NCBI GenBank assembly: GCA_964586365.1
Contig: CAZPGI010000001.1
Coordinates: 1-54,283, forward strand
DNA from: an uncultured Candidatus Saccharibacteria bacterium
GTDB taxonomy: Bacteria; Patescibacteriota; Minisyncoccia; Minisyncoccales; Minisyncoccaceae
Reading direction: 5' to 3'
DNA: 54,283 nt
The translations under genes were made by a program, and so were the position numbers. Shown piece after piece: positions 20,295 through 46,695 of this stretch. Position 1 is the first letter of the stretch; every line of letters begins with the position of its first letter. The notes under the pieces are model-generated. The model saw only the letters and a program-made list of their open reading frames with translations. It searched no databases and had not been told where the DNA came from.

Positions 20295-20764
20295 ACGAAA
20301 AAGAACTATTAGAAAAAATAGAGGAAATAATTAAGGAATTTTTTGAACGAGTTGGTTCAGAAGTAGAGATTAAAAAAATATCTTTAAGCCAAATTGACGA
20401 CCGAGAAGTTTTAACAGTTAATTTAAAAACTAAAGAAGCCAATATCTTTATTGGCAAGCAAGGGTTGGTTTTGTCTGACATTCAGTTGCTTTTGAGAAAG
20501 ATTCTTAAAAGAAAAACGAACGAAGAGCTTTTTTTAAATTTAGACATTGACGATTACAAAAAATACAAAGAAGACTATATCCGAGAGCTAGCTCAAAGTA
20601 CTGCTGATGAGGCAGTAAGCCAAAAAGAAAAAAAAGAATTGCCTTTGGCCGCAGCTTTTGATAGAAGAATAGTTTATTTAGAGCTGTCAAAAAGAACTGA
20701 TGTCAAAGTGGAAAGCCAAGGAGAAGGGGAAAACAGAAAAATTATTATTACGCCCTTAAATTAA
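20291..20764 (+). CDS. jag: Jag-like KH/R3H RNA-binding protein
   Basis: Position after yidC. KH-like IGKQGLVLSDIQ and a C-terminal R3H-like region. Confidence 0.6.
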   Translation: MNEKELLEKIEEIIKEFFERVGSEVEIKKISLSQIDDREVLTVNLKTKEANIFIGKQGLVLSDIQLLLRKILKRKTNEELFLNLDIDDYKKYKEDYIRELAQSTADEAVSQKEKKELPLAAAFDRRIVYLELSKRTDVKVESQGEGENRKIIITPLN

Positions 20765-22554
20765 ACATTCTCTTGGCTGTATTTTTTCGCCTCTCTTATC
20801 TTAATTATTTCTTCAGGAGAAGTGGTGATTATTTGGTCTTCGGTGTAAGAAGCAACAATACTAATGGCTACGTGTTTTTGGCCAGCAAAAAAGATACCTT
20901 CTCCTACCGGGCTTTCCAAGAGCAGGTATTTTTCTTGGTCAGTTAGATTAAATGTTTTTTGGACAAGATCAATAGCTGCCGGGCTTTGTTTGAGCAAAAG
21001 TTGAAGAGAAGAGTTGGTAATAATTGGCTTGCCGTATTCTGAACTAATAAAATCAGAAACATCTTGAGTAATAGTAGTTACCCCTAGCCAGTATTTTCTC
21101 GCCCGCTTGCAAATGCCGTAGAGAAAAGAGGCGCCGTCTGCTTCTTTCATCATCCACCAAGCTTCATCAACCACTAGAATTCTTTTTTTCAAGCTTACTC
21201 TAATACTGTTCCAGATATATCTCATAACAATAAACATAGCGATTGGTCTTAAGTCATCTTCCATGTCTCTGATGCCAAAAATAACCAATGATTTATCCAT
21301 GGAGATATTGGAGGGGCTATTAAAGAAAGAAGAAAAAGTGCCTTTAGTATATTTTCTCAGTCTTTCTACTAAAGATTCTGCTCCTTGCATTGTTTCCAAA
21401 ACAGATTCCAAATCAGAAAGAATAGGAATGTTTTCTTTCCATTTTTTAGGGTCAGAATATGGCGTGATGTCTTTAGCAGCATAGGTCTCCATAATTGCTC
21501 TGTCCATAATCGCATCTTCTTCAGGAGTCATTCCGCCAAGCATTATTCTCATTAAACCAACTAAGTTAACAATACTGCTTCTTAGCACATCTTCTGGTGT
21601 TTCGTCTTCTCTAGGTTCAGGTAAATCAAAAGGATTGATATGGCTTTCAGAGCTTAAAGATATTTTAAAAAAAGAACCGCCGACAGCGTCAACCAGCGGT
21701 TTGTATTCATTCTCTGGGTCAATGACAATACAATCTATCCCTAGCATCAGAGACCTAAGCAATTCTAGTTTTATAGCATAAGATTTACCAGACCCTGATT
21801 TAGCAAAAATAACCATATTGGCGTTTTCCAAACTAAAGCGGTCAAAAAGAATTAAAGAGCTATTGTGTTTATTGATACCAAACAGAATTCCTTCATTAGA
21901 ACTTAAATCAAAAGAGATAAAAGGAAATAAGCTGGAAAGCGGGCCAGTGTTTAAAGTATTATGGATTTGAAGTAAATCCATGCCGTAAGGAAAACAGGAT
22001 AATAGCCCTTCTTTTTGTTGGAGCAAGGCAGGTTTTATGTAAACTAATCTTGACTCTAAAACTGACCTTAAGTTTGTTTCAATTATTTCCAAGTCTTTTT
22101 TATTATCAGCATAAATAGTGATGTATAAGCCGAACTTAAACATTTTTTCTTGGGCTGTTTGAAGCTTATCTCTTAAATCTTCCAAATCTTGATAAGCGGT
22201 CTCTAGAGCCGGGTCTCTAATTAATCCTTTTTCTTGCCTTTCAATTATTTCTGACTGTACTTCAGTTACGCTTTTTCTTAATTGTCTTAAGATGGTTCCA
22301 GTTTCAATGGGGTGAAAGAAAAAAGATAAATCAAAAGGAGCGTCCATGTTGATAATCGGAGCTAACCAGCCCATGGTTAAATAGCGGGGATAGGAAAAGA
22401 CAAAGTATGTTTTGGAAAATTTTTCTTCAATCCTGACATAGTTTTGGTTAATTTCAATAGCCGGTGGGGCAACAATGTCCTTAGCACCAGTAACTTCTTT
22501 CTCAAACAATTTTTCTTGTTCTATTTTTTTGTTTTCTTTTTTAAATAAAGCCAT
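20761..22554 (-). CDS. VirB4-family T4SS ATPase, main (C-terminal) part
   Basis: Walker A AKSGSGKSY, Walker B ILVVDEAWWMM, followed by the TQDVSDF motif. The N-terminal region APPAIEINQNYVRIEE...YPRYLTMGWL resembles Gram-positive VirB4 homologues (Tn916 Orf16/TcpF/PrgJ type). Confidence 0.8.
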   Translation of the reverse strand: MALFKKENKKIEQEKLFEKEVTGAKDIVAPPAIEINQNYVRIEEKFSKTYFVFSYPRYLTMGWLAPIINMDAPFDLSFFFHPIETGTILRQLRKSVTEVQSEIIERQEKGLIRDPALETAYQDLEDLRDKLQTAQEKMFKFGLYITIYADNKKDLEIIETNLRSVLESRLVYIKPALLQQKEGLLSCFPYGMDLLQIHNTLNTGPLSSLFPFISFDLSSNEGILFGINKHNSSLILFDRFSLENANMVIFAKSGSGKSYAIKLELLRSLMLGIDCIVIDPENEYKPLVDAVGGSFFKISLSSESHINPFDLPEPREDETPEDVLRSSIVNLVGLMRIMLGGMTPEEDAIMDRAIMETYAAKDITPYSDPKKWKENIPILSDLESVLETMQGAESLVERLRKYTKGTFSSFFNSPSNISMDKSLVIFGIRDMEDDLRPIAMFIVMRYIWNSIRVSLKKRILVVDEAWWMMKEADGASFLYGICKRARKYWLGVTTITQDVSDFISSEYGKPIITNSSLQLLLKQSPAAIDLVQKTFNLTDQEKYLLLESPVGEGIFFAGQKHVAISIVASYTEDQIITTSPEEIIKIREAKKYSQENV

Positions 22555-22556
22555 AT

Positions 22557-23192
22557 TTAAGTAATTATTTCTGGGGGCAATTCAGGATAATATCCTAATT
22601 CAGCTTGTTTAGGGTGGTGAAGGCTCCATAAAAGCTCAATTAGTTCTTCTGTCCCCAAAGCTACTGATTTTAAACCACACCTTCTTAATCCAACAGAAAC
22701 ATATTCCATTCTTTGCCAGAGCTGGTATTTGCCTGTTTGGAAGCCTTGCTCGGTTAAAGAGCCGGCTGTTTTTTCCTTTCCTCCCCCGCCAGGCAAACTA
22801 GCCAATTCCACTAAAGGATAATAAGGGACAGCAATGTAGAAGTTTTTATTCATAATTGAGCCCCCAGCCACTAATTCTTCAATAAACCTTCTATAATCAG
22901 CGGTTTGGATTTTAAGCAATTCATTTTTTTGTTCGTCTTCCAGTTTTTTAATTTTTTCTATGTAGCCAGTGATATTGACTTTTCTAGAGTTGACGATTAT
23001 TTGACAGGAAAAATCCAAAGAATTAAGAAAATTTTGGAAGTTGAAGATAATAGCTTCTTGTTCTTCTCCTGACTTTAAAGCAAAGTTAATGGAAGATACC
23101 AAAAGAACGCCTTTTAAGGACTTATCTTTCATTATCATTACTCCTTCCCGGATTTGGTCAATTGGTATGAATTGTTGAGATGGTGTTGGCAT
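22557..23192 (-). CDS. VirB4 N-terminal-domain-like protein (separate ORF)
   Basis: IPIDQIREGVMIMKDKSLKGVLLVSSINFALKSGEEQEAIIFNFQNFLNSLDFSCQIIV matches the extreme N-terminal pattern of Gram-positive VirB4 proteins. It ends 2 nt before the next ORF, in a different frame. Confidence 0.55.
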   Translation of the reverse strand: MPTPSQQFIPIDQIREGVMIMKDKSLKGVLLVSSINFALKSGEEQEAIIFNFQNFLNSLDFSCQIIVNSRKVNITGYIEKIKKLEDEQKNELLKIQTADYRRFIEELVAGGSIMNKNFYIAVPYYPLVELASLPGGGGKEKTAGSLTEQGFQTGKYQLWQRMEYVSVGLRRCGLKSVALGTEELIELLWSLHHPKQAELGYYPELPPEIIT

Positions 23193-23611
23193 TATTTTTC
23201 AAAAAACATTTTTTTATTCAAAGCTTCAATTTTTCCGCTCGGTTTAAGTTTTAAGTTTGTTTTCTCTTCTTTTTCTTTCTCCGGCGCTTTCTTAGATGTT
23301 TTAACAGGAAGAAAAACCGGCGATTCTTTTCTGTCCCATTTGTAAACTTTGCTATTAGCAGTGTAATTGAGAAAGTTTTTGGAGACATCAACGATGCTTA
23401 ATCCTTCTACTTTCCAAAAGGCTAGAGCTAAAGCTAGCCCGAAAATAGTGCCGCAGACAATAATGTATAAAAAGAAATTACTTTTTCCTAAGCTGAAATA
23501 CAAGAAAAAACAAACTCCTAAAGCTAGACCAACATAAATACTTTGTTTGGTAGTAAAAGGACCAAGGATTTTAGGGTCATGTTCTATGAATTGAGGAATT
23601 TGAAATTGCAT
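23192..23611 (-). CDS. PrgI-family (VirB3-like) small membrane protein
   Basis: MQFQIPQFIEHDPKILGPFTTKQSIYVGLALG followed by two TM helices, which is the PrgI family pattern. Its stop overlaps the start of the next ORF by 1 nt. Confidence 0.6.
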   Translation of the reverse strand: MQFQIPQFIEHDPKILGPFTTKQSIYVGLALGVCFFLYFSLGKSNFFLYIIVCGTIFGLALALAFWKVEGLSIVDVSKNFLNYTANSKVYKWDRKESPVFLPVKTSKKAPEKEKEEKTNLKLKPSGKIEALNKKMFFEK

Positions 23612-25565: not shown

Positions 25566-26037
25566 ACATTAATTCTTGAGCTATTCCTTTTTGTTTTTCT
25601 TTTTGTTCCTCGGGAAAGTATTCTTCTTCCTCTTCAATGTTCTCTTCTGTCATATCTTTTATCACATTTTCATTGTCTGCAATCCTTTTAGCAATTTCTT
25701 CAATTATCTTTTGATTTATATTTAGCTTCCCCAAAGATAATTTTAATTCTTTTTCCAGTTCATCAAAAGTTATTTCTTTGTTTATAAGTTTTTCTACTAC
25801 CTTGGCAATTGCTATGGAAGCTGATATTTCTTCTAAAGGTTTTTTCAGGGCAAGATATTCTTTTATCTTTTTGCTTTTTAAAAATTTTACTACTCTTTTT
25901 TTTTCCGGCGTTGTGGCTGACTCTAACCACTCCTTCAAAAGAGGATCGTTCTCCACGAGATTCTTTTCTAGGTCATATTGGACCACTAATTCTTCTATGA
26001 AATTTAATGTTTCTGTTGATGGTTTAATCTTCTTCAT
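25564..26037 (-). CDS. Hypothetical acidic/coiled-coil protein
   Basis: Intact ORF that overlaps the upstream VirB6-like gene by 14 nt, suggesting co-translation. No family recognised. Confidence 0.4.
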   Translation of the reverse strand: MKKIKPSTETLNFIEELVVQYDLEKNLVENDPLLKEWLESATTPEKKRVVKFLKSKKIKEYLALKKPLEEISASIAIAKVVEKLINKEITFDELEKELKLSLGKLNINQKIIEEIAKRIADNENVIKDMTEENIEEEEEYFPEEQKEKQKGIAQELM

Positions 26038-28093
26038 GTATGGTTCTGTAAATAATATCTAATTTTTTGGCTAATTGTTCATTATTTTTTCGTGCCTCTA
26101 TTTTTTCTTGATCACTGCCTTCTTTCATTAATTTTTCCAGCCTGGTTAGTTCAGCGTCAGCCTGAGCTATCCATTTATTGTTATCTTTGAAGGATTGTTT
26201 TTGTTCGTTATTCATGTTTTTGAATAAGTTCTCAATTTGTTTTTGGTCAAGAGGTTTAACGTGTTTTTCAAAATCAAAATCTTTGAAAGCTGAAGCGTCT
26301 TGAAGGGTGTTTCTTTGTTCTTGGGTTCCTCTTTCATCAATGTATTTTAAATCTTTGTCAGATAAGTTTGCCCTTACAACAAGATTAGTTAGAGATATCG
26401 GCCTTATCTTCTCCTGTTTTTCTTTGGGACTCATGCCAGCCATAATGTCTGCTGTTGTTTTTTTACCGCCAGTTAATTCTGCAGCTTTGTCAGGCACGAA
26501 TTTAGCCAAGTCTTTAACGTTGAAACCATATTGTTCAGCTTCTTTAGTGTTTTTTGTTAAAGCTTCTATTTCTTTATCATTAAGTTCTTTTTTCTCCATC
26601 AATACCTGCGTGGCCTGGTATTTCTTTATCTTTCCTTCCGGGGTGTAGGCAACAGAATTGGCTATTTCTCTAACTTGGTCGGTCTTTAATTTTTCCATCG
26701 GTGCTTTGAATTCTTCAAATTGTTTTTTTCTCATAGTTTCTGCTGTGCCAGGTTTTTCAATGGTTAGAACTTCTTTGGCTCTAGTTGCCCATTGCTTGAC
26801 CTCTTCTTGTTCTAAAGGAGCCTTTACTACATTCATTAATCCGCCTACTGTTGTTATTTTTTCTTTTTCATTAACCTTGGCGTTTAAGGCTTCAGTAGCC
26901 CCAGTTTTTACCCCTCCATACAATCCTCCGGCTAAAGAATAAGCAGCCCTTGTCGCCCGCCCTTCGTCTTTCTTTAAATCAGCTTGAGTTTTAGCTCCTG
27001 TGTAAGCTCCTGTAACAAATCCTGTTCCAGCAGCAGCTAGTCTACCAGCAGCTTGTCTTCCGTAACCAGTTGCCATTTCTCCTATTTGGCCGCCAGAAGA
27101 AATAGTAATAAAAAAGCCGATGATAAGAAAAGCAAGGGGAATTATCAAAGTAAAAAGACTGCCTACTGCCCCTAAGCTTCCTGTTGGTGTGGAGACAAAT
27201 GAACCGCTGAACATTATTTTCTCTGATAAATAGATAAAAAAAGCAGCTGGAATGCCAATAACTACCCATTGTAAGAAAGTTTTCCACCAATCATCCCAAT
27301 AGGTGATACTTGGAAAAACAGCTTTAATATATTTACTTTGAGGAAGAACCTTGCTGGCAAAAGCAATCGGAGAAACTATAACTAAGAACCATAAAACAAT
27401 ATGTCTAGCTATGAATAAAAAAGCATAAAGAAAGTATATTACAGCAGAAAGAATAGCGAACAAAAGATAAGCTATTGGAACCACAGGATTACTCAAGGAA
27501 AAAGAATTAGAAATTAGCCCTTCAGTAATTGTTTCTGTTAAATTATTGCTAATATCTCCAGTTAAGAACAAGCCCATAATTTTATCAGCAAAATCAATAA
27601 TTATGCCGCAAAATACTGGAGTGAAATTAATTAAAATAGCTATAAGGACAAAGTTAATTAAAGCTTTTTTTGCTTTGGTTTCTTGATAGCCGACAATAAT
27701 ACTGATAGCAATGGCTACTAAGCCAAAAATTAAAACAACATTAGCCAAATCTCTAGTCGTTCCCCATCCGCTCTGAACAATTGGATTGTTTTGGATAACT
27801 GTGCCCATAAAGTCAGGACTAATCACCCAATTTAGAAGTGATTGGCCAATGCTTAATATGCCCTGAGCTATAGAAGAAGCAAGGAGGGTGAGGGCAGCTA
27901 TAATTACAGAACCAAGACTAAGAGATGATTCGTTGTTTGCTCCTTCTCCCCCTGCTCCCATGTCGCGCAGCATATCAGACAGTTTGCTAACTAGGTTAAT
28001 GTAGGTTATAACTTGGGCTTTTGCCAAAATAGGGATAAGAACAATTATTAAGCAAAAGGAAATAATAAGTATTTTTTTAGTTGAAGATTTCAT
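26024..28093 (-). CDS. Polytopic membrane protein, VirB6/TrbL-like by architecture and context
   Basis: Signal peptide, then an approximately 8-helix hydrophobic core, then a roughly 330-aa K/E-rich hydrophilic tail. This is the usual layout of T4SS channel subunits. The call is contextual. Confidence 0.45.
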   Translation of the reverse strand: MKSSTKKILIISFCLIIVLIPILAKAQVITYINLVSKLSDMLRDMGAGGEGANNESSLSLGSVIIAALTLLASSIAQGILSIGQSLLNWVISPDFMGTVIQNNPIVQSGWGTTRDLANVVLIFGLVAIAISIIVGYQETKAKKALINFVLIAILINFTPVFCGIIIDFADKIMGLFLTGDISNNLTETITEGLISNSFSLSNPVVPIAYLLFAILSAVIYFLYAFLFIARHIVLWFLVIVSPIAFASKVLPQSKYIKAVFPSITYWDDWWKTFLQWVVIGIPAAFFIYLSEKIMFSGSFVSTPTGSLGAVGSLFTLIIPLAFLIIGFFITISSGGQIGEMATGYGRQAAGRLAAAGTGFVTGAYTGAKTQADLKKDEGRATRAAYSLAGGLYGGVKTGATEALNAKVNEKEKITTVGGLMNVVKAPLEQEEVKQWATRAKEVLTIEKPGTAETMRKKQFEEFKAPMEKLKTDQVREIANSVAYTPEGKIKKYQATQVLMEKKELNDKEIEALTKNTKEAEQYGFNVKDLAKFVPDKAAELTGGKKTTADIMAGMSPKEKQEKIRPISLTNLVVRANLSDKDLKYIDERGTQEQRNTLQDASAFKDFDFEKHVKPLDQKQIENLFKNMNNEQKQSFKDNNKWIAQADAELTRLEKLMKEGSDQEKIEARKNNEQLAKKLDIIYRTIHEED

Positions 28094-28115
28094 AGTTTGC
28101 CCTTATTATTTTTTG

Positions 28116-28134
28116 TGGTATAATTATTATACCA
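28116..28134. promoter_or_regulatory. Palindromic pair of divergent extended -10 promoters
   Basis: tggtataat-t-attatacca is a perfect 9-bp inverted repeat. Each arm reads TGnTATAAT toward one of the two divergent operons (starts at 28093 and 28162). Confidence 0.5.
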
Positions 28135-28161: not shown

Positions 28162-28464
28162 ATGTCAAAGAGTCTTGACCTTAGTCCAGAAACAGTGCTT
28201 ATGCTTTCTTGGGCTGGATTGATAGATTTAATAGAAATAATTCTTCTTTGTTTTGCTTTAGATGATGTTGGTATTCTTGACCTTATCAGCACAATTACAA
28301 TCGGAGGCTGGATGTTTTTAAGAGAAGGGAAAACAGTTAATTTTAAAGCGCAAAGAAAAAGGCTGGTACGTTTTTTAGCAGGAATGGGGATAGAGATTGT
28401 CCCTTATCTTGGCGCTTTGCCCATGGTCACTGTTATTACTTATTTAACCTTAAAAGAAGATTAA
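28162..28464 (+). CDS. Small membrane protein (100 aa)
   Basis: Three hydrophobic segments. It ends 1 nt before the next gene. No family recognised. Confidence 0.45.
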   Translation: MSKSLDLSPETVLMLSWAGLIDLIEIILLCFALDDVGILDLISTITIGGWMFLREGKTVNFKAQRKRLVRFLAGMGIEIVPYLGALPMVTVITYLTLKED

Positions 28465-28465: not shown

Positions 28466-31400
28466 ATGAATAAAAACAAAATTCTTTTTATTTTTCTCCT
28501 TTTCCTTATTCCTTTTTTGGCTTTAGCCCTAGAAACAGAGTATCCAGTCATAGGCGGAACCCAGCCCACTCAAAGTACTTCTCCAGCAGAGTTTATAAAA
28601 TACATCTTCAATGTAGTAATTATTGTCGGTATCATTGCCGCTGTTTTTGTGATGACCTTTCAAGGAGTTAATATTCTTTTAGCCAGAGGAGATGTAGCTT
28701 TAGTTTCTACTGCTAAAGAAAAGATTAAAAGCGTTTTTATCGGCTTGATTATCCTTTTAGGCTCTTATCTTATTCTTACTGCTATTAGCCCTGATTTAGC
28801 GGTAATAGACATTAAGCCATTGGAGACTATTCATAAAATAGTAAAAGGACCAGAGCCAGAAGAAGAGACCATTCCCCTTTCTGAATTTGAAGAAATTCCT
28901 TTAGGCACTATCTTAGAAAGCATCTTAGCCGCTAACTCGTCTGAAAGAATCTATAACGATGTTACTGAAGAACTTTGTTATGCTTACGACGAAAACGGAG
29001 ATACTATTGACCGTAATGGTGATAAAAAAATAGACGAGCAAGACCTGTTGAAAGGAGTGGATATGTATTATTGTTTGTCAGAGTTAAATAAAGCTTTAAT
29101 AAAAAAGATAAAAGATATTAATGGAGGCAATTATTTATGTAATACTCCATCAAAAACCGGACCAATTGAAGAAATGAAGGAAGCGATTTCCAGTGGTTGT
29201 AGCTGTCAGTCTTGCGATGTTTGGAAACCGAGATTCTATTGTCCTGGAGAGGAATGCTATCAATGTAAAACCTATAGTTGTGGCGAGTGCAGTACTTGTT
29301 GTAAGGACCATTGTTCTTGCTGCGGCAGGGCCTATTATTCTCCTGATGCAGGCTGCCAAGACCTTAATGATAAAAGCAGAGACCCTTGTGGAGCAACAAG
29401 AGATAAAATAGACTGTGCCAGAAATGAAATTAAGCTTAGGGTTAATGGTACGGGCTATAATGTCCCTGGAGCGACTGAAGATAACTGCGATTTTACGAAA
29501 TACTTTAAAGAAAATGAGTATAAGTTTTTAACTCTTACTATAGCTAAGCAAAGACTCGATTCTTTTAAAACATACTTCCAAAACCATTTAACTGATTTAG
29601 AAAAAGCAGAAACAATGATGAAGTCTCCTTATGGAGAAAGATTGTCTTTAGCTGAGTTTCAAGCTATTCAAGCTGGTGATGCTTATAAAAAAACCGTAGC
29701 CAATTCTTTTAAGAACACTAATAGTAGTTATTCTTACAATCCAGTCAAATACTGCCGAGAGTTTAATTGCACTGGTTACAAAAACGGAGACTCAAAGAAT
29801 CTTTGCGTGTCTGGGGAAAGAGTCAGTTTGACAGAGGCTTTAATGGAAAAGGAAAAATTGATAGATCCTTTATACGATAAATTACCGAAACTCATTGATA
29901 AAAGAATATGCAAGGTAGACAAGGAAAAGGACGTAGAAAGCTATTATTACGATGGGGACGGAGCTACTTTTTATTTTCAATCAGGATACAGCACTAGTCA
30001 ATCTGGCATTCAAGAAAAATGCGCCATTAATTCAAAGATTGAAAAAGAAATGATGAAGGGGCTGATTCCTGTTGGAGAAACAGTTGATGCCACAGAGAAG
30101 TTTGCTCAAGATGTTATTAACATATTAAGCCAGATATCAGCAGAAACCCAGAAAACAATTGAAAAAGCCATTGAATTAAGCGCTTTGCCAGAAAAATGCG
30201 ATTGTTCCTGGGGATGTTCTAATCATTCTGATTGCCGTTGTGTTCCTAGTTCAGAAAGCTGCACTTCTTGCTCTTGCAGTTCTTGTTTGGCTTGCCGTGC
30301 TAACTCTCAATCATTGTGTATCTGTTGTCAAGATTGTGAAGAAGTGGAAGTGATTGATGAAAATATTCCTAGCCCAGAAGATGACATGATTAAGAATTTT
30401 GGTTCTTGTCCATCTTGTCCAAGCATTGTTTCCACAGGCAATGCCAATGAATACTGGACCTATTGTCCTTGCAGCGGAACCTTGCTCATCCCTAATATTG
30501 CTTTAATTACTAATCCTAATTCTAGGTTTTGTTATTTAGGCGAAGACCTGGGTTCTTATTGTGCTATTCATTTTCAAGAAGCGAATTGCCAAGCAGAGTT
30601 TAAAAAACTACCTCGAGTTTGTATTGTTTCCACAATTAATGCTCCTAAATTTGTAAATTATACTATTGAAAGTTGCGAAACAGTTGTTCAAGAGCCGATT
30701 TCAGACGCTATTCTTTGCGGTGGCGGACAAAAAGCTTATTACACCCAAAAAAGCATTCTTAAGCTTAAACCCAAGGGAGAAATAGTTACTATTTGTGAAG
30801 GAGAGCTGCCTGTGGACCAAGAGTTGGTTAATGAAATTAATAAATATTGTAATACAACTTGTGCCCATGAACCAAACTGCCAGCCAGGAAGCTTTCATTG
30901 GGTAAGCGCTAACGAATTTGTCATGAGAGAAGTTTTTTGCAAAGGTCCTGGTTCTCCTAAGGATCCTCAAGGCCTTATTAAAAGAGACTCTGCCCCTTAT
31001 TACAGTTCTCTAAAGGTTGCTTTGCCCGTAGGATATGTGGTGGAAAGCGTTACGGCTATTCCTTTGAGCGATTCAAGGGTCCCTTCTTCTTATCGAAGCT
31101 CAATGGTTCCTGTTCAATATTATCATATTGGAACGTGTTCTACAGAATATACTGATGAAGGACCAATAAAACATTGCGTAGAGGCTGGGTATAATACCTA
31201 TCATTTTATTGATGATGGTTATGCTTTATTGTATAAAATCAGAAATACAAACAGAATAAAGAGAGGAGAAAGCGATAGTCAGGCTGAATATGTTTGTCCG
31301 GTTAATGATATAAAAGACAGGCAGTGTAGGATATTTAAATATAGCGATAGCGATGCTATTGATCCTAAATATCCAGAAAATATTAATACTGACTATAACT

Positions 31401-31858
31401 GCCGAGACGAAAACTCTTCTGGCGCTGGCTATCTTCAGAAAATAGAGCTTTTGAATAACAGGTTGGAAGGCTTGGTTCAAGGCAAGAATCTGAGGAGCGA
31501 TGATGTTAACCGCTGGACTCTTTTAGAAAAGTTATCTTTAATTAGAACTAAACTAGAGTCCTGTATCCAGGGCTATAGTTTTCCCAACAAAGGTGATTTA
31601 ACTAAACAGAGAATATTTTCCTGCCAAGAAGGAATTGAAGATATGATTTTACGCTCCTTAGTTATTCTGCCAGACTTTCCTTATCCCCCTTCTAAAACCT
31701 ATTGGAATTGCTATCCTTTTAATAGCAGTTCTTTAACTGACGAGCAGAAGATATCTTGCTATGCCAATAAAGACGCTGAGGGAACTGCAGCTAGTCCTAA
31801 ATGTCAAAGATTTATTAGCGGCTTATTAGACAATTATTATTGTTGTCAAGGAGAATAA
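28466..31858 (+). CDS. T4SS-pilin-domain (VirB2/TrbC-like) N-terminus fused to a ~950-aa cysteine-rich ectodomain
   Basis: Signal peptide, ALETEYP, TM1 (IIVGIIAAVFVMTF), an ARGD loop, AKEKIKS, then TM2 (FIGLIILLGSYLIL) give the pilin layout. After that come about 66 Cys (hand count), including dense CxxC/CC clusters. Confidence 0.7.
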   Translation: MNKNKILFIFLLFLIPFLALALETEYPVIGGTQPTQSTSPAEFIKYIFNVVIIVGIIAAVFVMTFQGVNILLARGDVALVSTAKEKIKSVFIGLIILLGSYLILTAISPDLAVIDIKPLETIHKIVKGPEPEEETIPLSEFEEIPLGTILESILAANSSERIYNDVTEELCYAYDENGDTIDRNGDKKIDEQDLLKGVDMYYCLSELNKALIKKIKDINGGNYLCNTPSKTGPIEEMKEAISSGCSCQSCDVWKPRFYCPGEECYQCKTYSCGECSTCCKDHCSCCGRAYYSPDAGCQDLNDKSRDPCGATRDKIDCARNEIKLRVNGTGYNVPGATEDNCDFTKYFKENEYKFLTLTIAKQRLDSFKTYFQNHLTDLEKAETMMKSPYGERLSLAEFQAIQAGDAYKKTVANSFKNTNSSYSYNPVKYCREFNCTGYKNGDSKNLCVSGERVSLTEALMEKEKLIDPLYDKLPKLIDKRICKVDKEKDVESYYYDGDGATFYFQSGYSTSQSGIQEKCAINSKIEKEMMKGLIPVGETVDATEKFAQDVINILSQISAETQKTIEKAIELSALPEKCDCSWGCSNHSDCRCVPSSESCTSCSCSSCLACRANSQSLCICCQDCEEVEVIDENIPSPEDDMIKNFGSCPSCPSIVSTGNANEYWTYCPCSGTLLIPNIALITNPNSRFCYLGEDLGSYCAIHFQEANCQAEFKKLPRVCIVSTINAPKFVNYTIESCETVVQEPISDAILCGGGQKAYYTQKSILKLKPKGEIVTICEGELPVDQELVNEINKYCNTTCAHEPNCQPGSFHWVSANEFVMREVFCKGPGSPKDPQGLIKRDSAPYYSSLKVALPVGYVVESVTAIPLSDSRVPSSYRSSMVPVQYYHIGTCSTEYTDEGPIKHCVEAGYNTYHFIDDGYALLYKIRNTNRIKRGESDSQAEYVCPVNDIKDRQCRIFKYSDSDAIDPKYPENINTDYNCRDENSSGAGYLQKIELLNNRLEGLVQGKNLRSDDVNRWTLLEKLSLIRTKLESCIQGYSFPNKGDLTKQRIFSCQEGIEDMILRSLVILPDFPYPPSKTYWNCYPFNSSSLTDEQKISCYANKDAEGTAASPKCQRFISGLLDNYYCCQGE

Positions 31859-31878: not shown

Positions 31879-33210
31879 ATGAATAAGAAAAAACTATTAC
31901 TTTCCCTTCTCGCTATTTCTCTTGTTTTGGTTTCTAATGCTTATGCCCTAGAAACTCAATATCCTGAGATCATGGGTAAGAGCATTACTGAAGAAACTAC
32001 ACCTGCCGGCTATGTTGTTTACTTTTTCTACTTAGCTATAGCCCTAGGAAGCGTTTTGGTTTTTATTGTTTTGGTTTTGGCTGGTGTTGACTTTATGACT
32101 GCTGGCGGAGAGCCGGCGAAGATAAGCGAAGCCAAGAAAAAAGTGACAAGCGCGGTTATTGGCTTAGTGGTTCTTTTAAGCTCTTTTCTCATTTTAAATA
32201 GCATTAACCCAGATTTATTAAATATAGAGCTGGAGCAATTAGAATGTCCTTCAGGTATAGGAATTGTAAAAAGAACTACTCTTGGAAAGATAGCCAATGA
32301 TTGTATAAGCTCAGATACGAAAGATATAGAGGGAGAGGTTCTTGAAACCAAAGGATGGAACTTTTCTGGCTGTTCTATTAAGGAAGTATATTTATGCAAT
32401 CAGCCAGATTTTAAAGGAACATGCATTAAGGTTTCTGATGAAAAGAGTCAAGATTATACTTGTCATCCTGATTATCAGTTTACTAGTGGTGTTAGTTTAA
32501 AAGGAGTTAAATCAATAAAATTCGTTTGGCGTTCTCCGGGATTGTATTTATATGATAGTATTGGAATGCAGGCGCAGGATATAACTAAAAACCCAGAATA
32601 TCTGGTTAGTAGTGTCAAAAATATGAACAGCTTAGGGTTTGACAATGCTGCTCAGTCCTCTCAATTTATTTGGCCGGCAACAGAAACAGCAAACGAAGAC
32701 GATACTTATTATGGCGCTGTTTTCTTTGATAGTATTAATTATTCAGGCAGATGCAGCCTAGAAATAATGAATAGAGAAGACCTTGGGGAAGCTAATTCTA
32801 TTGGCAGAAACACTTTGTCTTCAGTTATTCTTTTTACTCAAAATCAAGTATCTGAATCTAAGGACCTGGGAGACATTATTTTTTACAACAATATCGATTG
32901 CGGGCAGAGTACAGCCGAAGAAGTTAAAACCTGTAAATTGGACATAAATAATTTTGTAACTGCGGGAAAAATTAAAAATGCCTGTCCTAATTTTAAAGAC
33001 GGAGATTATGTTCTTTCTTTTAGCATTAGTGGGCCGGGAGGATTGGTTTTAAAAGGCAACCAGAATAATCTTTGCGAGTATTTTGATGTTGGCAGCTTGA
33101 CTTCAGGAAACTGTTATTCAAGCTTAAAAACAAAATCAACAATTTATGTTCAGGGACCGAGCGGGGTTAAGCCAGAATCATACATAATTTTTCCAGTAGG
33201 CAATAAATAA
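31879..33210 (+). CDS. T4SS-pilin-domain N-terminus fused to a beta-gamma-crystallin-like ectodomain (paralogue 1)
   Basis: ALETQYP and two TM helices (AGGEPAKISEAKKKV between them). The C-terminal part carries Greek-key-like FFDSINYSGRC...NTLSSVILF and IIFYNNIDCG. ATG at 31879. Confidence 0.7.
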   Translation: MNKKKLLLSLLAISLVLVSNAYALETQYPEIMGKSITEETTPAGYVVYFFYLAIALGSVLVFIVLVLAGVDFMTAGGEPAKISEAKKKVTSAVIGLVVLLSSFLILNSINPDLLNIELEQLECPSGIGIVKRTTLGKIANDCISSDTKDIEGEVLETKGWNFSGCSIKEVYLCNQPDFKGTCIKVSDEKSQDYTCHPDYQFTSGVSLKGVKSIKFVWRSPGLYLYDSIGMQAQDITKNPEYLVSSVKNMNSLGFDNAAQSSQFIWPATETANEDDTYYGAVFFDSINYSGRCSLEIMNREDLGEANSIGRNTLSSVILFTQNQVSESKDLGDIIFYNNIDCGQSTAEEVKTCKLDINNFVTAGKIKNACPNFKDGDYVLSFSISGPGGLVLKGNQNNLCEYFDVGSLTSGNCYSSLKTKSTIYVQGPSGVKPESYIIFPVGNK

Positions 33211-33212: not shown

Positions 33213-34439
33213 ATGAAACAAGCAAACATTCTTGCCATAATCCTATTTTTATCAGTACCCCTTTTTGCCTTAGCCGATTACCCAACTATTAATGGAAGAA
33301 CCATAACCAGTGATTCTACTTTTTCTGATTATGTTGTTTATTATTTTTCTTTGGCTTTAATGATTGGAATTATAGCAGCAGTAGTTATTTTGATAGCTGC
33401 GGGTATTAAGTTTCTGTTTTCTCAAGGAGATACTTCCAAAAGAAGTGACGCAAAAAGAATGATTACTGGAGCTTTTATTGGTTTGATAGTCCTTTTTGGT
33501 TCATATGCTCTTTTAAACTCTTTGAACCCTTCAGCTACCGAGCCAATTGTTGAGCCAGAGCCAGTTGCTTTTGACGGCATTTATTTAATTAAAGAGAATG
33601 GAAGCAAGGTTTTGGTTTCTCAGGATATTCCAGAGACTAGTCAAAACTTTACTGGCATTGAATGGATTTCCAGCGCAGAAGACTTGCCTGCAATTTATAT
33701 TTATGCTGAAAAATACTTTAAAGGCGTGCCAAAAGAAATAACAAACGGAACTTCGGTTTCTATTCCTAAGGGTTCATCAATTTCTTTTTTATGGAAAACA
33801 GCCGGTATTTATCTTTATGACAAGACCAATTATCAACTGGGAAACAAAAGCGCTCCCCTACCCATTAAGTTTAGTCAAGCTTTTTTGGGAGGAAGTTCTT
33901 TTGACAATACAACGCAATCAATTAAAATTAATCAGCCTAGCGATGGTTCAACCTTAGGCGCTATTCTTTTTTCTGAAGATGATTATCGCGGCACTTGTTC
34001 TTGGATTTTAGGAGAAATTTCTGATTTAAGTCAGTCAAGAGGTGAAGAAAATAATCCACCTATAGGTAATAATAATTTATCTTCAATTATTGTTTTAAAT
34101 TTGGCTTCTGGCTCGCCTACAGTTACTTTTTACAATCGAGCTGATTGTCAATATATCCAAAAAGATCCAAGAAACAAAAAATGTGATGTTTCTACAATTA
34201 ATAAAACAAGCACCTTCAAAGAATCCTGTCCTGATTTTACAGGAGACGTTTTATCTTTTTCTTTAAATGAAAATACAGGCGTTCTTTTGAAAACAGAAAA
34301 TGGCCAGTGTCAATTTTTCAAAAGACAAAATAGTCCTCAAGAATGTCAAAGTTTAATTAAATATGGCTATGTTTACAATCCAGACATTAAGAAAGCCATT
34401 AAACCCTATTCTTTTACTATATTTTCTTTGACAAAATAG
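33213..34439 (+). CDS. T4SS-pilin-domain N-terminus fused to a beta-gamma-crystallin-like ectodomain (paralogue 2)
   Basis: LADYP and two TM helices (SQGDTSKRSDAKRMI between them). Greek-key-like YAEKYFKG...SSISF, LFSEDDYRGTC...NNNLSSIIVL and VTFYNRADC. Confidence 0.7.
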   Translation: MKQANILAIILFLSVPLFALADYPTINGRTITSDSTFSDYVVYYFSLALMIGIIAAVVILIAAGIKFLFSQGDTSKRSDAKRMITGAFIGLIVLFGSYALLNSLNPSATEPIVEPEPVAFDGIYLIKENGSKVLVSQDIPETSQNFTGIEWISSAEDLPAIYIYAEKYFKGVPKEITNGTSVSIPKGSSISFLWKTAGIYLYDKTNYQLGNKSAPLPIKFSQAFLGGSSFDNTTQSIKINQPSDGSTLGAILFSEDDYRGTCSWILGEISDLSQSRGEENNPPIGNNNLSSIIVLNLASGSPTVTFYNRADCQYIQKDPRNKKCDVSTINKTSTFKESCPDFTGDVLSFSLNENTGVLLKTENGQCQFFKRQNSPQECQSLIKYGYVYNPDIKKAIKPYSFTIFSLTK

Positions 34440-35317: not shown

Positions 35318-36295
35318 TTGGCCTTTTGCTTGATTTTGGCTGGATTATGCCTATTTGTCAACAAAGAAACCAGTCAAACAAAAGCAGTAAGCCAAATTAA
35401 CTTTATCAATACTGAATCAAGCTTGCAAGAGCCGATTACCAGCATTATGACAGGGGAGAACAAGGTTTTAACAGCCGTTTCCTCCCCTCTTTTTATTTCC
35501 TCTCAGTCCATGGGTTCAATCTTTGAGGAAGAAGAAGACAATTCTATTATTAAATACACGGTTAAAAAAGGAGAAACTATTAATCAGATAGCCGATAAGT
35601 TTAACATTTCAACAGAAACTATCCTTTTGGTCAATGAATTAAGCTCAAGCTCAATTAAAGAAGGAGATGAGTTGATGATTTTGCCAGTAGATGGATTGCT
35701 TCATATGGTAGAAAGCGGAGAAACGGTGGAAAAGATAGCAAAAAAGTATAGCGCTGATTCAGAGAAAATAATTGACTTTAATAAATTATCGGGCCAGGGT
35801 CAAGTTTTTGTGGGAGATATTTTAATTATTCCTGGCGGAAAGATGCCTAAATCATCACCAACTGCTACTGGGTCAGTAGCTCAAGTTACTTTGCCTGATT
35901 CCTATTTCATTTCTCCTGCTACTGGCATTATTACTCAAAGAGCTCATTTTTCTCATATTGTTAATGGAGCGAGGCAGTATAATGCAGCAGATATTGCTAA
36001 TTCCTTAGGAACTCCTATTAGAGCTGCGGCTGGTGGAGAGGTCCAGATTGTTAAAACAGTTTGGCCTTACGGCAATTATATCACTATTCTTCATCCTAAT
36101 GGTGTGGTTACTTTATACGGCCATTTGAATGCTTTTGCCAAAGATATTTATTCTGGAAAGCAGGTTTCTCAAGGAGAAATTATTGGCTATATGGGAAGCA
36201 CTGGCTATTCCACTGGCTCTCATCTGCATTTTGAAGTAAGAGGAGCAGCCAACCCTCTTTTAAAATATCCAGTAGGAACAAGAATTAGTTATTAA
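35318..36295 (+). CDS. Membrane-anchored LysM (x2) + M23 metallopeptidase
   Basis: Two LysM repeats (YTVKKGETINQIADKF, HMVESGETVEKIAKKY). M23 motifs HPNGVVTLYGHL and GSTGYSTGSHLHFEV. Probable TTG start. Confidence 0.85.
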   Translation: MAFCLILAGLCLFVNKETSQTKAVSQINFINTESSLQEPITSIMTGENKVLTAVSSPLFISSQSMGSIFEEEEDNSIIKYTVKKGETINQIADKFNISTETILLVNELSSSSIKEGDELMILPVDGLLHMVESGETVEKIAKKYSADSEKIIDFNKLSGQGQVFVGDILIIPGGKMPKSSPTATGSVAQVTLPDSYFISPATGIITQRAHFSHIVNGARQYNAADIANSLGTPIRAAAGGEVQIVKTVWPYGNYITILHPNGVVTLYGHLNAFAKDIYSGKQVSQGEIIGYMGSTGYSTGSHLHFEVRGAANPLLKYPVGTRISY

Positions 36296-40605: not shown

Positions 40606-40998
40606 TTAAGGAACTTGCTGGAAAAAGTAAAGAGGCCATTCCATTTGTCCTTTAGTAATAAAGGCTACGAATTCGTAAACAATAAGCCAAGCAGCATAAA
40701 TTAATATCACGCCAATAATACCATAAGTTAATATCTTTTTTCCTTTTTCTACTTTGCCAGGGTCGCCGCCAGCGCTCATTATGGTTATCCCGCCAAAAGC
40801 AAAGATAAGAGCAGCAATAGGAGGAATTAAAGTAAAAAGCAGGAATTTAATAACATTGTTTATTAAGACAAATAAATCGCTGAAAGTGCATGGTTCTTGG
40901 TCTTTTCCTCCGCAAGGAACTAATCCTTGGCCTAAAACTGGAAGAGCAAAAAGCAAAAAAAAGAAGAAAAAGGCAAGATATTGTTTGGTTTTTGGCAT
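40606..40998 (-). CDS. Stand-alone T4SS pilin-like protein (VirB2/TrbC-type, CPR style)
   Basis: Signal peptide, LVPCGG..PCTFSDLFVLINNVIKFLL, TM1, the loop SAGGDPGKVEKGKKIL, then TM2. This is the same layout as the N-termini of the three fusion proteins. Confidence 0.65.
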   Translation of the reverse strand: MPKTKQYLAFFFFFLLFALPVLGQGLVPCGGKDQEPCTFSDLFVLINNVIKFLLFTLIPPIAALIFAFGGITIMSAGGDPGKVEKGKKILTYGIIGVILIYAAWLIVYEFVAFITKGQMEWPLYFFQQVP

Positions 40999-41112: not shown

Positions 41113-41781
41113 TTATTGTTTTTTAAACAGTTTTATTCTGAAAGGAGGAACTGTATCTTGGTCAAAGATAAGGCGGTTTTCAATCAATTCTTTTTTATTG
41201 TTTGATTTTATTATTTCTTCAATCGGGCTTAATCTTTTAATAAAAATAGGGACCAGAGAAAGAATAATAAGCCAGCCAATTGGCTCAAAGTAATTTAATC
41301 CTCCTTTAAAAGTAAAGAAAATGCCGAAGATTAGAGAAAGGATAGTGCCAACAGAAGCTGTCCAAATGAGAGTAAAAACAATGGTAGGGATAAGCAAAAT
41401 GAATAAAGTAGTAGGAGAAAAAGCAAAGATTGCGCCAATTAAAGTTCCCAATCCTCTCCCGCCATTAAACTTAAGGAAAATTGACCAATTGTGGCCAATT
41501 ATAGCCATAAAGCCAGCAAGAACTTGAATTGCTATTGGCAAGTTGTATTTTTGAGCCAAAAAAACTACTAAAAAGCCTTTACCAACATCAAGAAAAAATG
41601 TCAAGATGCCTGGCCACGCTCCTACATTTTTAACTACGTTTGAACTAGAACTTTTTCTCCAGCCAATTTCTAAAATGTTTTTGCCAGAAGCGAGACGGGA
41701 AATGATATAGGCAAAAGGAATGGAACCAAGGAGATAAGAAAAGATTAAGTAAAGAAAATAAAAAAAGTATTGATTAATCAT
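41113..41781 (-). CDS. PlsY-like acyl-phosphate:G3P acyltransferase paralogue (divergent)
   Basis: LLGSIPFAYIISR and GHNWSIFLKFNGGRGLGT are conserved. The GSxNxGxTN motif is degenerate (SSSSNVVKNVG). Confidence 0.55.
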   Translation of the reverse strand: MINQYFFYFLYLIFSYLLGSIPFAYIISRLASGKNILEIGWRKSSSSNVVKNVGAWPGILTFFLDVGKGFLVVFLAQKYNLPIAIQVLAGFMAIIGHNWSIFLKFNGGRGLGTLIGAIFAFSPTTLFILLIPTIVFTLIWTASVGTILSLIFGIFFTFKGGLNYFEPIGWLIILSLVPIFIKRLSPIEEIIKSNNKKELIENRLIFDQDTVPPFRIKLFKKQ

Positions 41782-42433
41782 TTAAATAAGTTTTGTTTTT
41801 AATGTTTTTAATCTGTTCAGCTAGCCTATCGCGGTGAGCCAAAAGAATTAATGGCGTGGCTGCAAGGGCGGGATAAAAGATTAATATATTATAGGTATAA
41901 AGCCAAAAAAGAGCAAATACTTCGCCAGCCAATCTTCCTGCCACTTGGTCAGAAACAGCATGTTTTAAAAACTTTTTGTTTAACTTTCTTCCCATTAAGA
42001 TTTCAAACAAAACCATAAAGCAGAAAATTAAAGCTATCCAGCCGAAGAATGCTTTCCAGTCAAAATAAAGAAGAATACCCATTAAGCTGGCTGCTCCCCT
42101 ACCTCCTTTAAACTTAAGGAAAAGAGAGTGGTTGTGGCCTAAAACAACAAAGAAAGCAGTTAAAGCCACGGATAAAGAATTGTTGATTAAAGATTGGGCT
42201 AGATAAACAGACAAAACTGCTTTGCCTCCATCTAAGAGGAAGACAAGAAGAAAAGCAATAAGGCCTATTGATTTTCCTTTTTCCTTGCCAGCTACTCTTA
42301 AAGTATTTAAAGCGCCGATATTTTTTGAGCCAGCTTGACGCAAATCTTCTTTAAAAAAAAGCTTGTTAATGATGAGTCCAAAAGGAATGGAACCAAGGAG
42401 ATAAGAAGCTAGAATGATAATAAAGTATTTCAT
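41774..42433 (-). CDS. PlsY-like acyltransferase paralogue
   Basis: LLGSIPFGLII, GSKNIGALN and GHNHSLFLKFKGGRGAAS. Confidence 0.65.
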   Translation of the reverse strand: MKYFIIILASYLLGSIPFGLIINKLFFKEDLRQAGSKNIGALNTLRVAGKEKGKSIGLIAFLLVFLLDGGKAVLSVYLAQSLINNSLSVALTAFFVVLGHNHSLFLKFKGGRGAASLMGILLYFDWKAFFGWIALIFCFMVLFEILMGRKLNKKFLKHAVSDQVAGRLAGEVFALFWLYTYNILIFYPALAATPLILLAHRDRLAEQIKNIKNKTYLND

Positions 42434-43311
42434 ATTATTTGTTCTTGTAATAAAGCAATAAGAATTGTGCCTGGGCCGACGTGAGCACCGATAACAAAAC
42501 CAGACACATTGATAAATTCTATTTTTACCTCTGGAAGGTTTTCCTGAACCATTTTTTCCAAACGTTTAGCTTCTTCTAGGTTGTCAGCATGGCTGATAGC
42601 AGCGCGATATTGGCCAGGATTCTTTTTAACCAAGTTTTTAACTTCTTTAAACAGGGCAGTGGCCGTATCTTTGGCTTGCATTTTAAAATTAGCTGGTTTA
42701 GCTTCGCCATCTTTAACTTTTAAAATTGGCCTCATGCCTAGTTCTTGCATTTTTTCCATAATTCTAGCCACGGCACTACTTATTCTTCCACCAGCCTCTA
42801 GCCATTTCGGGCTTTCCAACATGCCAAAAAGATGAACCTTAGAAGGCAAGCTTTCTAAAGAATGAAAAATGTTTTCAGTGCTCTCCCCTTTTTCTATTAA
42901 TTCTGCCGTCCTAATAACTAAAAGAGCTTCGCCAACATCAACATTAAGAGTGTCTAAAATAAATATTCTTTTTTGAGTTTCTTCATCAAATAGTTTTTTG
43001 GCTTGAATGGCAGAATTAAAAGCCCCAGATAATTTTGAGCTTAAGGTAAGACAAAGAACATCTTTGTCTTGAGCTAAAAGGTTGTCGTAAGCTTTTTTGA
43101 AAGTACCTACTGCTGGCTGAGAGGTTTTGGGAGTGGTTTTAATGCCTTGTTCTTTGGCATCTTTCATCTTTTTATAAATATTATCTTTGGAAATATCTTT
43201 TTGCTCGGGCCAGTCAACTATAAAAGGAACGATTTCAGTAATTCCATATTTTTGAATCAACTCTGGAGGCAAGGCTGAGCTGTCTCCAATAATTAAACCT
43301 GGTTTTTTCAT
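42430..43311 (-). CDS. DegV/FakB-family fatty-acid-binding protein
   Basis: IGDSSALPPE, PKTSQP and LSSKLSGAFNSA motifs, about 290 aa. Confidence 0.85.
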   Translation of the reverse strand: MKKPGLIIGDSSALPPELIQKYGITEIVPFIVDWPEQKDISKDNIYKKMKDAKEQGIKTTPKTSQPAVGTFKKAYDNLLAQDKDVLCLTLSSKLSGAFNSAIQAKKLFDEETQKRIFILDTLNVDVGEALLVIRTAELIEKGESTENIFHSLESLPSKVHLFGMLESPKWLEAGGRISSAVARIMEKMQELGMRPILKVKDGEAKPANFKMQAKDTATALFKEVKNLVKKNPGQYRAAISHADNLEEAKRLEKMVQENLPEVKIEFINVSGFVIGAHVGPGTILIALLQEQII

Positions 43312-43329
43312 ATATGTTTATTTATTATT

Positions 43330-44193: not shown

Positions 44194-44194
44194 A

Positions 44195-45970: not shown

Positions 45971-46009
45971 AAGAAAAAAGAAATAAAGGATATTTCTTCA
46001 ATGCATAAA

Positions 46010-46684: not shown

Positions 46685-46695
46685 TTTATTCTATC

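Follow-up and report, generated by a model that had tools for sequence, protein, structure and literature searches.

The 54,283-nucleotide (nt) stretch analysed here (the window; positions 1 to 54,283 of contig CAZPGI010000001.1, GenBank assembly GCA_964586365.1, deposited as an uncultured Candidatus Saccharibacteria bacterium) is a chromosomal, dnaA-proximal type IV secretion system (T4SS) locus of the monoderm type, in which dnaN, dnaA, yidC and jag lie near the T4SS genes. The first of three consecutive pilin-like genes at this locus encodes a protein of 1130 amino acids (aa) in which a VirB2-like N-terminus is followed by about 1000 residues, called the ectodomain here for its predicted location, that are very rich in cysteine (Cys). 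The protein and its place among the T4SS genes are the subject of this study.

The protein contains 66 Cys (5.8%), the first of them at residue 171, and the pilin part and the linker that follows it are Cys-free. The 6.6% Cys of the ectodomain compares with 0.82% in the 19 other proteins of the locus. A first-pass annotation, made from the letters of the window, had counted by hand an even number of 66 Cys in the open reading frame (ORF) at 28466-31858, all of them beyond the N-terminal part, and had pointed to two extreme clusters. The counts proved exact and the clusters lie where they had been placed, at residues 244-290 (nt 29195-29335) and 578-626 (nt 30197-30343), the second being followed by the motifs SCPSCPS (residues 647-653) and YCPCSG (666-671), with YYCCQGE as the C-terminus. 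The description of these clusters as dense in both CxxC and CC was only partly right. In 5000 composition-preserving shuffles, the 14 Cys of the densest 50-residue window (shuffle mean 8.0) were reached once, and the 11 CxxC motifs (mean 4.25, a 2.6-fold enrichment) were reached 12 times. Adjacent CC pairs, on the other hand, were no more frequent than in the shuffled sequences (4 versus a mean of 4.2). The Cys signal of this protein thus consists of CxxC motifs and clustering, not of CC pairs.

The Cys-rich ORF is a real and constrained gene. Database searching with the ectodomain recovered 27 homologue clusters, all from metagenomes of the Candidate Phyla Radiation (CPR, or Patescibacteria) and most of them 1087-1315 aa long; repeating the search with a profile against a database clustered at 90% added one further protein only. 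Intact orthologues of 1087-1331 aa are present in many independent assemblies. In a 24-sequence alignment no residue is better conserved than Cys (mean column identity 0.76; Trp comes next with 0.62), and some 40 of the 66 Cys show no or almost no variation across 23 homologues, down to approximately 30% identity. Poor conservation of the Cys positions, which the first-pass annotation had named as an argument against its own proposal, was therefore not found. Compared with an 85%-identical orthologue (genome L007), the ratio of nonsynonymous to synonymous substitution rates (dN/dS) is 0.09 overall and 0.05-0.18 in the individual regions. A long ORF arisen by chance, a non-functional or pseudogenized remnant, or an assembly artefact would fit a Pfam score below threshold and the sole annotation as "hypothetical protein", and nothing else favors it. 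We reject this explanation, whose probability is negligible given the many intact orthologues from independent assemblies, the low dN/dS, the invariant Cys columns, the preserved synteny, and the presence of a promoter-like site and an apparently coupled gene upstream.

Gene order around the ORF is strongly conserved. The succession of virB6 on the opposite strand, a small membrane-protein gene (tm100), the Cys-rich gene and two pilin-like genes was kept in all 19 GTDB Patescibacteria loci recovered, and it is also found in Ca. Microsyncoccus archaeolyticus, where the orthologue of the Cys-rich gene is MCSN_5410, and in another metagenome-assembled genome. Some of the syntenic records that bear an orthologue, namely L023 (OZ246399.1), L015 and L018, are titled "Candidatus Saccharibacteria" or "Pacearchaeota archaeon"; they look like misassigned CPR genomes of the Paceibacteria type.

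The two-helix VirB2/TrbC-like layout that had been proposed for the N-terminal part is upheld by PF18895 (T4SS_pilin) and TrbC matches within the family and by paralogy to the neighboring pilin-like genes. The protein starts with a signal peptide of the Sec type lacking a twin-arginine motif. Cleavage would occur after ALA, which leaves the mature N-terminus LE(T/N)xYP that is common to the family and to both downstream paralogues; E23, Y26 and G31 are nearly invariant in the family. Hydrophobic segments were found at residues 1-29, 39-74 and 86-114, the AlphaFold2 (AF2) model has helices at 40-72 and 77-107, and the basic residues R74, K84, K86 and K88 belong to the inter-helix loop. Because this basic loop should face the cytoplasm according to the positive-inside rule, the ectodomain (after residue ~115) is expected to lie outside the cell. 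The hairpin matches the NCBIfam "Mbov_0395 pilin-like" model (E 1e-4), and among the 24 aligned family sequences T4SS_pilin is detected at E<0.01 in 11 and TrbC in 2. Over residues 1-120, identity to the N-terminal parts of the two downstream gene products amounts to 38-43% (E 1e-21 to 1e-23), and both of these products exceed the PF18895 threshold. Taken together, the N-terminus is a membrane anchor of the VirB2/T4SS_pilin type (PF18895, PF04956). With about 1000 residues after the hairpin, however, the protein is unlike a small VirB2 subunit (mature length ~70-130 aa); it is a pilin-domain fusion and not a major pilin.

Beyond an acidic linker, the ectodomain is divided into modules A, B and C, with a lineage-variable region between B and C (Table 1). 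Module A, which is mostly modelled by AF2 with a predicted local distance difference test score (pLDDT) of 82-96 and aligns to a group of distant relatives (A2; hhalign probability 100%), contains an EF-hand-like loop in which D182, D186, I189 and D193 never vary, with N184 conserved to 90% or more. The loop fits the pattern D-x-[DN]-x-[DN]-G-x-I-x-x-x-[DE], its sixth position being K here and G in most homologues. Matches to Pfam EF-hand models are weak (E 0.075, and E 0.003 for EF-hand_5 in two homologues), and the loop is a putative Ca2+-binding site. Ten Cys are invariant in the first cluster (C245, C250, C267, C279, C283, C285, C286, C297, C308 and C317) and nine in the second (C578, C580, C599, C604, C607, C610, C618, C621 and C624), where their spacing is CxC...C-x4-C-x2-C-x2-C-x7-C-x2-C-x2-C. 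The long helix of module B is predicted with pLDDT 93-98, and this module is, together with the N-terminal (N) and C modules, the part most widely shared in the superfamily described below. Module C recurs at the C-terminus of many relatives of 600-1500 aa. In the lineage-variable region mean column identity falls to 0.17-0.29 with 19-56% gaps, versus identities of 0.4-0.7 elsewhere, and dN relative to the L005 orthologue is 0.48, against 0.18 in modules A and B. AF2 predicts beta strands of mixed confidence there. The region is a candidate host-contact insert. Self-BLAST revealed no internal duplication between modules A and B.

Table 1. Features of the Cys-rich pilin-fusion protein and of the surrounding T4SS locus (positions in the window).
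Feature	Position	Strand	Description
VirB4-type ATPase	20761..22554	-	CD1110 (monoderm conjugation) family; NCBIfam NF045971 E 1.5e-109 (above cut-off); Pfam P-loop_TraG
TraC-like and PrgI/VirB3-like proteins	22557..23611	-	211 aa and 139 aa; PrgI PF12666 E 4e-6
VirB6/TrbL-like protein	26024..28093	-	polytopic, 689 aa; divergent from the Cys-rich operon
Promoter-like site	28097..28124	+	TTGCCC-16-TATAAT, upstream TG (extended -10), 10/12 matches
tm100	28162..28464	+	100-aa small membrane protein, 1 Cys; no Pfam/NCBIfam match
Cys-rich pilin-fusion ORF	28466..31858	+	ATG start, 1130 aa; coordinates include the stop codon
Sec-type signal peptide (predicted)	28466..28531	+	residues 1-22; MNKNK, hydrophobic core, ALA followed by LE; from hydropathy
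VirB2/T4SS_pilin-like hairpin	28580..28807	+	two hydrophobic helices, residues ~39-74 and 86-114, with a short K/R-rich loop
Module A	28877..30046	+	residues 138-527; EIPLG motif, putative Ca2+ loop, helices, Cys cluster 1, GDGATFY motif
EF-hand-like loop	29009..29044	+	D182-R-N184-G-D186-K-K-I189-D-E-Q-D193
Cys cluster 1	29198..29416	+	residues 245-317; GCSCQSC...CSCCGRAY spans residues 244-290
Module B	30047..30403	+	residues 528-646; IPxGExVD motif, 42-residue helix (536-577), Cys cluster 2
Cys cluster 2	30197..30337	+	residues 578-624; CDCSWGC...CQDCEE spans residues 578-626
Lineage-variable region	30404..31270	+	residues 647-935; indel-rich, beta-rich
Module C	31271..31855	+	residues 936-1130, ending in DNYYCCQGE; AF2 pLDDT mostly 84-96
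Pilin-like array gene 2	31879..33210	+	443 aa, 12 Cys; PF18895 31.2 bits (above cut-off)
Pilin-like array gene 3	33213..34439	+	408 aa, 6 Cys; PF18895 28.5 bits
Short T4SS_pilin	40606..40998	-	130 aa; PF18895 E 8e-13

The first-pass annotation had not recognized the ectodomain and had proposed a Foldseek search with an AlphaFold model. The outcome agrees with its judgement, as no confident match was obtained in any library tried (Pfam, NCBIfam, PDB sequences and Foldseek). A first AF2 model, built from 24 sequences, was too poor (pLDDT 58.7) and the Foldseek run on it was uninformative. A second one, built from 52 sequences, reached a pLDDT of 77 and a predicted template modelling score (pTM) of 0.70 (most of modules A, B and C lies above pLDDT 80), and its best Foldseek hits had E values of 1.7 in PDB and 1.3 in BFVD, neither of them a match. 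Against PDB sequences, the best phmmer hit of the single sequence was spurious (E 0.09) and hmmsearch with the 52-sequence profile gave none at E<=1. Pfam and NCBIfam detected nothing in the 1130-aa protein beyond the pilin domain and the weak EF-hand, and Pfam scans of the 24 aligned family sequences and of the isolated Cys clusters added no further family. A "Kazal-type inhibitor" label carried by one homologue (P0015) was rejected, since a scan at E<=5 yields only T4SS_pilin and EF-hand_5. Beyond the pilin module, the ectodomain has no similarity to those of the two downstream pilin-fusions. It thus lacks any relative that the Pfam or PDB searches could detect, even though the model was usable, and may represent new fold space.

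A much wider set of proteins shares parts of this architecture. Profile searching of 1.84 billion representative sequences returned 22,157 matches at E<=1e-3 and 83 at E<=1e-30; most of the former are presumably matches to the pilin module alone, and some of the 150 matches listed are of this pilin-only kind. Modules N, B and C, often with A as well, are found again in proteins 600-1500 aa long whose Cys content is 4-7.7%. One of these holds 109 Cys, the maximum of the superfamily, and their C-terminus is nearly always DNYYCC, DNWFCC or NFFCC. Aligned by hhalign, the close family (A1) and the 36 distant members of A2 match over 526 columns (probability 100%, E 2e-73). Within these 36, a Peptidase_M23 domain is present in three and a NosD/beta-helix domain in one. 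The superfamily architecture is, as judged from these alignments, a conserved scaffold with exchangeable cargo. A separate group of proteins (P0068, P0069, P0073, P0082, P0086, P0093 and P0099) joins three to four tandem VirB2-like pilin modules with few Cys in a single polypeptide; these are another, also undescribed, elaboration of the CPR pilin module.

The number of Cys bears on their chemical state. In full-length members of the superfamily the ectodomain Cys count is even in 60 of 85 cases (p=9e-5), and in 44 of 68 after clustering at 50% identity (p=0.01). Among the even counts, multiples of four are as frequent as those that leave a remainder of 2. Even numbers (12, 6, 2, 8, 6, 10 and 6) are likewise seen in every other exported pilin-like protein of the locus and in the array gene 2 and 3 orthologues of genomes L001 and L003. 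Cys enrichment with even parity in exported proteins reportedly indicates oxidative folding, as put forward by Dutton and colleagues in 2008. Because of this even-number bias disulfides are favored over metal clusters, and we consider it somewhat probable that the ectodomain Cys form disulfides rather than metal sites.

We propose, with a probability of roughly 0.55, that the 1130-aa protein is a disulfide- and Ca2+-braced T4SS subunit of the minor-pilin or tip type which presents a variable host-contact module. According to this proposal, it would be an exported, membrane-anchored subunit of the origin-proximal T4SS of a CPR bacterium of the Paceibacteria/Minisyncoccales type. The Sec signal peptide and the VirB2-like hairpin would direct membrane insertion with the C-terminal ~1000 residues outside, and the hairpin, as in VirB2, might permit extraction and assembly by the VirB4-driven machine. 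The ectodomain would form a rigid scaffold of modules A, B and C, held mainly by disulfides, about 30 in number should every Cys be paired, and also by a single EF-hand-like Ca2+ site; on this scaffold one lineage-variable insert (residues ~647-935) would be presented to the host envelope. A minor-pilin role is proposed because a 110-kDa domain is too bulky to be carried by every subunit of a VirB2 filament; instead, the three pilin-fusions could prime the filament built from the 130-aa pilin, sit on it as a cap, or surround the mouth of the channel. The M23 peptidase or beta-helix inserts of distant relatives would fit a general platform used to bind or breach the host surface. The disulfide state, Ca2+ binding, incorporation into a pilus, tip location and host contact of the protein are all things we infer; the "adhesin tip" role in particular, which the first-pass annotation had also raised, is suggested by gene position, topology and the domain swaps in relatives.

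The pace of divergence is consistent with surface exposure. Identity of the 1130-aa protein is only 40-43% between genomes whose VirB4 and PNPase (polynucleotide phosphorylase) proteins are 86-88% and 71% identical, respectively, and in the same comparison VirB6 (38-39%) and the other pilin-fusions (31-42%) diverge to a comparable extent.

Several observations weigh against the proposal. The PF18895 score of the 1130-aa protein itself is 19.7 bits (E 9e-4), below the Pfam cut-off of 26.6. At short evolutionary distance dN/dS is as low in the variable region as elsewhere (0.09), so that there is no sign of the diversifying selection that is typical of receptor-binding tips. When sub-blocks of the ectodomain are taken singly, their Cys numbers are not even; therefore, either disulfides cross between modules or some Cys are unpaired. 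Finally, many of the samples from which the sequences come are anoxic (sludge digesters, a methanogenic reactor), and the window contains no Dsb or VKOR gene that could account for the formation of some 30 disulfides. The first-pass annotation had already seen no Dsb-like oxidoreductase, and this is borne out: Pfam scans of essentially all window ORFs of at least 90 aa gave no thioredoxin, DsbA, DsbB or VKOR, and a [WFY]CxxC active-site expression run over the window found only the zinc finger of Fpg and one spurious frame. A literature search for Dsb or VKOR in CPR bacteria returned nothing relevant.

The uneven sub-blocks, the anoxic samples and the missing Dsb gene also count for a metal-binding display module, in which the Cys clusters would coordinate Zn2+ (as zinc knuckles or a two-zinc site like that of zf-CXXC), Fe-S clusters or Cu. 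The spacing CxxCxxC...CxxCxxC is the two-zinc signature of eukaryotic zf-CXXC domains, and Cys cluster 2 resembles it with its invariant C604-x2-C607-x2-C610-x7-C618-x2-C621-x2-C624. The enrichment of CxxC over shuffled sequences points in the same direction, and metal binding would suit anoxic habitats such as the digesters and the methanogenic reactor from which relatives come (PMC10936435). Even so, the isolated clusters have no match to Pfam zinc-finger, metallothionein or ferredoxin models even at E<=5, no conserved His stands beside the Cys (mean His conservation 0.19), and the even-number bias of whole proteins comes without a preference for multiples of four. A signal peptide of the Sec rather than the Tat type means that a fold already loaded with its cofactor could not be exported. 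Vicinal CC and CxC motifs are typical of cystine knots, and both occur here, the former as the invariant pair C285-C286. We give metal coordination a low but appreciable probability, below that of disulfides.

The main rival to a minor-pilin or tip subunit is a static structural component that spans the envelope, for which the hairpin would be a mere anchor and which would stand in for the VirB8/9/10-type parts that are absent from the monoderm systems of CPR bacteria. The gene is single-copy and holds a fixed place beside virB6 in 19 of 19 loci. In the deeply diverged relatives P0134 and P0138 (~20-30% identity) the giant gene is found downstream of virB4, on its strand and with a single small gene in between, a position that counts for a structural part and also for T4SS membership in general. 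In the distant relative P0116 it again heads a pilin-like array adjoining dnaA, another sign of T4SS membership. Strong purifying selection in all regions and the conservation of modules N, B and C across very deep divergence speak for the structural alternative too, and VirB8 homologues are reported to be scarce in CPR genomes (PMC12102498). It is harder to reconcile with a protein that evolves as fast as other surface parts and has an indel-rich variable region, and the M23 and beta-helix swaps in relatives fit an outward-facing tool better than a channel wall. A purely structural role is compatible with most of the data and is not mutually exclusive with a minor-pilin function; we hold it to be possible, at well below an even chance and behind the minor-pilin or tip subunit.

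Origin-proximal T4SSs with pilin arrays are known in CPR bacteria. They are MPF-FATA-like (monoderm), often adjoin dnaA, lack relaxases and have VirB2 arrays (Quinonero-Coronel et al., 2025; PMC12102498), and Southlakia epibionticum, a Saccharibacterium and the one genetically tractable member of the CPR, requires both its T4SS and the pilin array to grow as an epibiont (Wang et al., 2023; PMC10633639). The locus described here shares with these arrays the signal peptide and two-helix module, the VirB4/PrgI/VirB6 locus by dnaA and the tandem, divergent pilin-like genes. However, the array genes SEML1_0014 and SEML1_0017-0019 of S. epibionticum are short, at 381-417 nt, as compared with 1130, 443 and 408 aa here; published Patescibacteria arrays consist of short pilins, whereas the first array gene at this locus has a ~1000-aa ectodomain with 66 Cys. 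Large Cys-rich pilin extensions are not mentioned in either study (PMC10633639, PMC12102498), and the term "cysteine-rich" was absent from the 25 papers ranked highest in a full-text search of the CPR literature. The giant Cys-rich pilin-fusion and the modular superfamily are thus unmentioned in the literature searched.

There are nevertheless two points of contact with published observations. T4SS-pilin-domain proteins are among the highly expressed proteins of unknown function in Ca. Microsyncoccus, whose genome has an orthologue (PMC10936435), and cryo-electron tomography has revealed an 8.6-nm conduit that joins a CPR cell to its host (PMC11880426). No adhesin has been found for the CPR T4SS (PMC12102498). 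CPR bacteria are ultrasmall parasites that account for a substantial part of bacterial diversity and grow fixed to the cells of a host, on which the T4SS is presumably used. A very large and conserved protein that is directed to the surface, joined to a pilin module and encoded at the head of the array offers a concrete candidate for the part that contacts the host. How ~30 disulfides or some equivalent Cys chemistry would be made outside a cell without known Dsb machinery is, moreover, a testable biochemical question. We put forward more tentatively that giant VirB2 fusions are an unrecognized T4SS class across the CPR, a missing tip for host contact and wall breaching with modular display of binding or lytic cargo (M23, beta-helix and beta-rich inserts). 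If this were true, 50-109 extracytoplasmic Cys in quinone-less, often anaerobic CPR bacteria without visible Dsb would mean undescribed oxidative folding or a new use of extracellular Cys.

Among better-studied systems, TraN of the F plasmid offers a precedent for a disulfide-rich contact protein, being encoded with a T4SS, surface-exposed, Cys-rich and in contact with the partner cell. In F-like systems it needs thiol-disulfide enzymes in order to fold, and TrbB is encoded within the F locus. TraN, however, is an outer-membrane protein of diderms without a pilin anchor, half the size and with about one third as many Cys. Homology to F TraN was rejected (hhalign of A1, probability 0.1%, E 0.5; no match to the Pfam TraN model). 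A similar logic applies to minor pilins with large C-terminal domains, such as initiator and tip pilins of the CofB/TcpB type and GspK in type IV pili and type II secretion systems, in which a pilin-like anchor loads a bulky domain and sterics confine it to the tip or initiation complex; VirB5 is the tip protein of T4SSs, and tip proteins of the PilY1 type use an EF-hand-like Ca2+ site. The anchor described here differs from that of type IV minor pilins in being a two-helix hairpin of the VirB2 type and not a type IV pilin N-terminal helix, and no sequence or fold similarity to minor pilins or VirB5-type proteins was detected in the Pfam, PDB-sequence or Foldseek searches.

A third comparison concerns the VirB1-type hydrolases of monoderm T4SSs (PrgK/TcpG/CwlT-like), as distant superfamily members have an M23 domain inside the Cys-rich scaffold. 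M23 and LysM variants of such hydrolases have been noted in CPR genomes (PMC12102498), and some members of the superfamily probably cut peptidoglycan at the T4SS. The 1130-aa protein differs from them in having no Pfam-detectable hydrolase domain; a separate LysM-M23 protein is encoded at 35318-36295.

Regarding the remaining T4SS genes, the 211-aa TraC-like protein shares 75-78% identity with its L001 and L003 counterparts, in which PF26593 is detected. The VirB6/TrbL-like protein, which has no Pfam match of its own, is 38-39% identical to L001 and L003 proteins with PF19590 (TrbL_3). Small genes of unknown function and a Band7-like protein are also found in the region. Across most of the compared genomes (L001, L003 and L005-L023) VirB4 is 86-97% identical, and 62-82% in more distant ones; as PNPase in the same genomes is 71-81% and VirB6 38-76% identical, the conservation of VirB4 is unusually strong relative to a housekeeping enzyme.

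The promoter-like site falls in the 68-nt divergent intergenic gap and is, by its consensus match, a candidate promoter of an operon comprising tm100, the Cys-rich gene and the pilin-like genes. Only 1 nt separates the tm100 stop codon from the start of the Cys-rich gene, and the two genes are apparently translationally coupled. Homologues of tm100 of 108-118 aa occupy the same place in L001 and L003, and tblastn detected it in 18 of 19 GTDB loci; it may be a dedicated assembly factor. Array genes 2 and 3 are full-length paralogues (31% identity over 440 aa) whose ~300-aa ectodomains have no Pfam match. Array gene 2 is listed among the ORFs with TTG at 31840 as its start, which would overlap the Cys-rich gene; the ATG at 31879 (MNKKKLL...) is more likely.

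On the 3' side of the array follow ksgA, the LysM-M23 gene, a DksA-like gene, a gene of unknown function, the PNPase gene and then the short T4SS_pilin gene, which follows PNPase-S15 in L001 and L003 too. Its 130-aa product is a candidate major pilin.

Two further regions of the window were noted. The cluster at 41113-47861 on the reverse strand encodes three PlsY (G3P_acyltransf) paralogues, two DegV proteins, a FakA-like Dak2-DegV fusion, a mechanosensitive-channel protein and a protein of the CarS-like CDP-archaeol synthase family (PF01864, E 1e-27), and it looks like a lipid-salvage cluster. A relative of the source organism has been described as a parasite of methanogenic archaea (PMC10936435), and the CarS-like enzyme may be of interest for this reason. 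On the forward strand (7691-10099 and 11262-11876), a 367-aa protein of unknown function comes before a PilB-like T2SSE ATPase (E 9e-118), and a lamin-tail-domain protein lies nearby; they belong to a type IV pilus or surface apparatus distinct from the T4SS.

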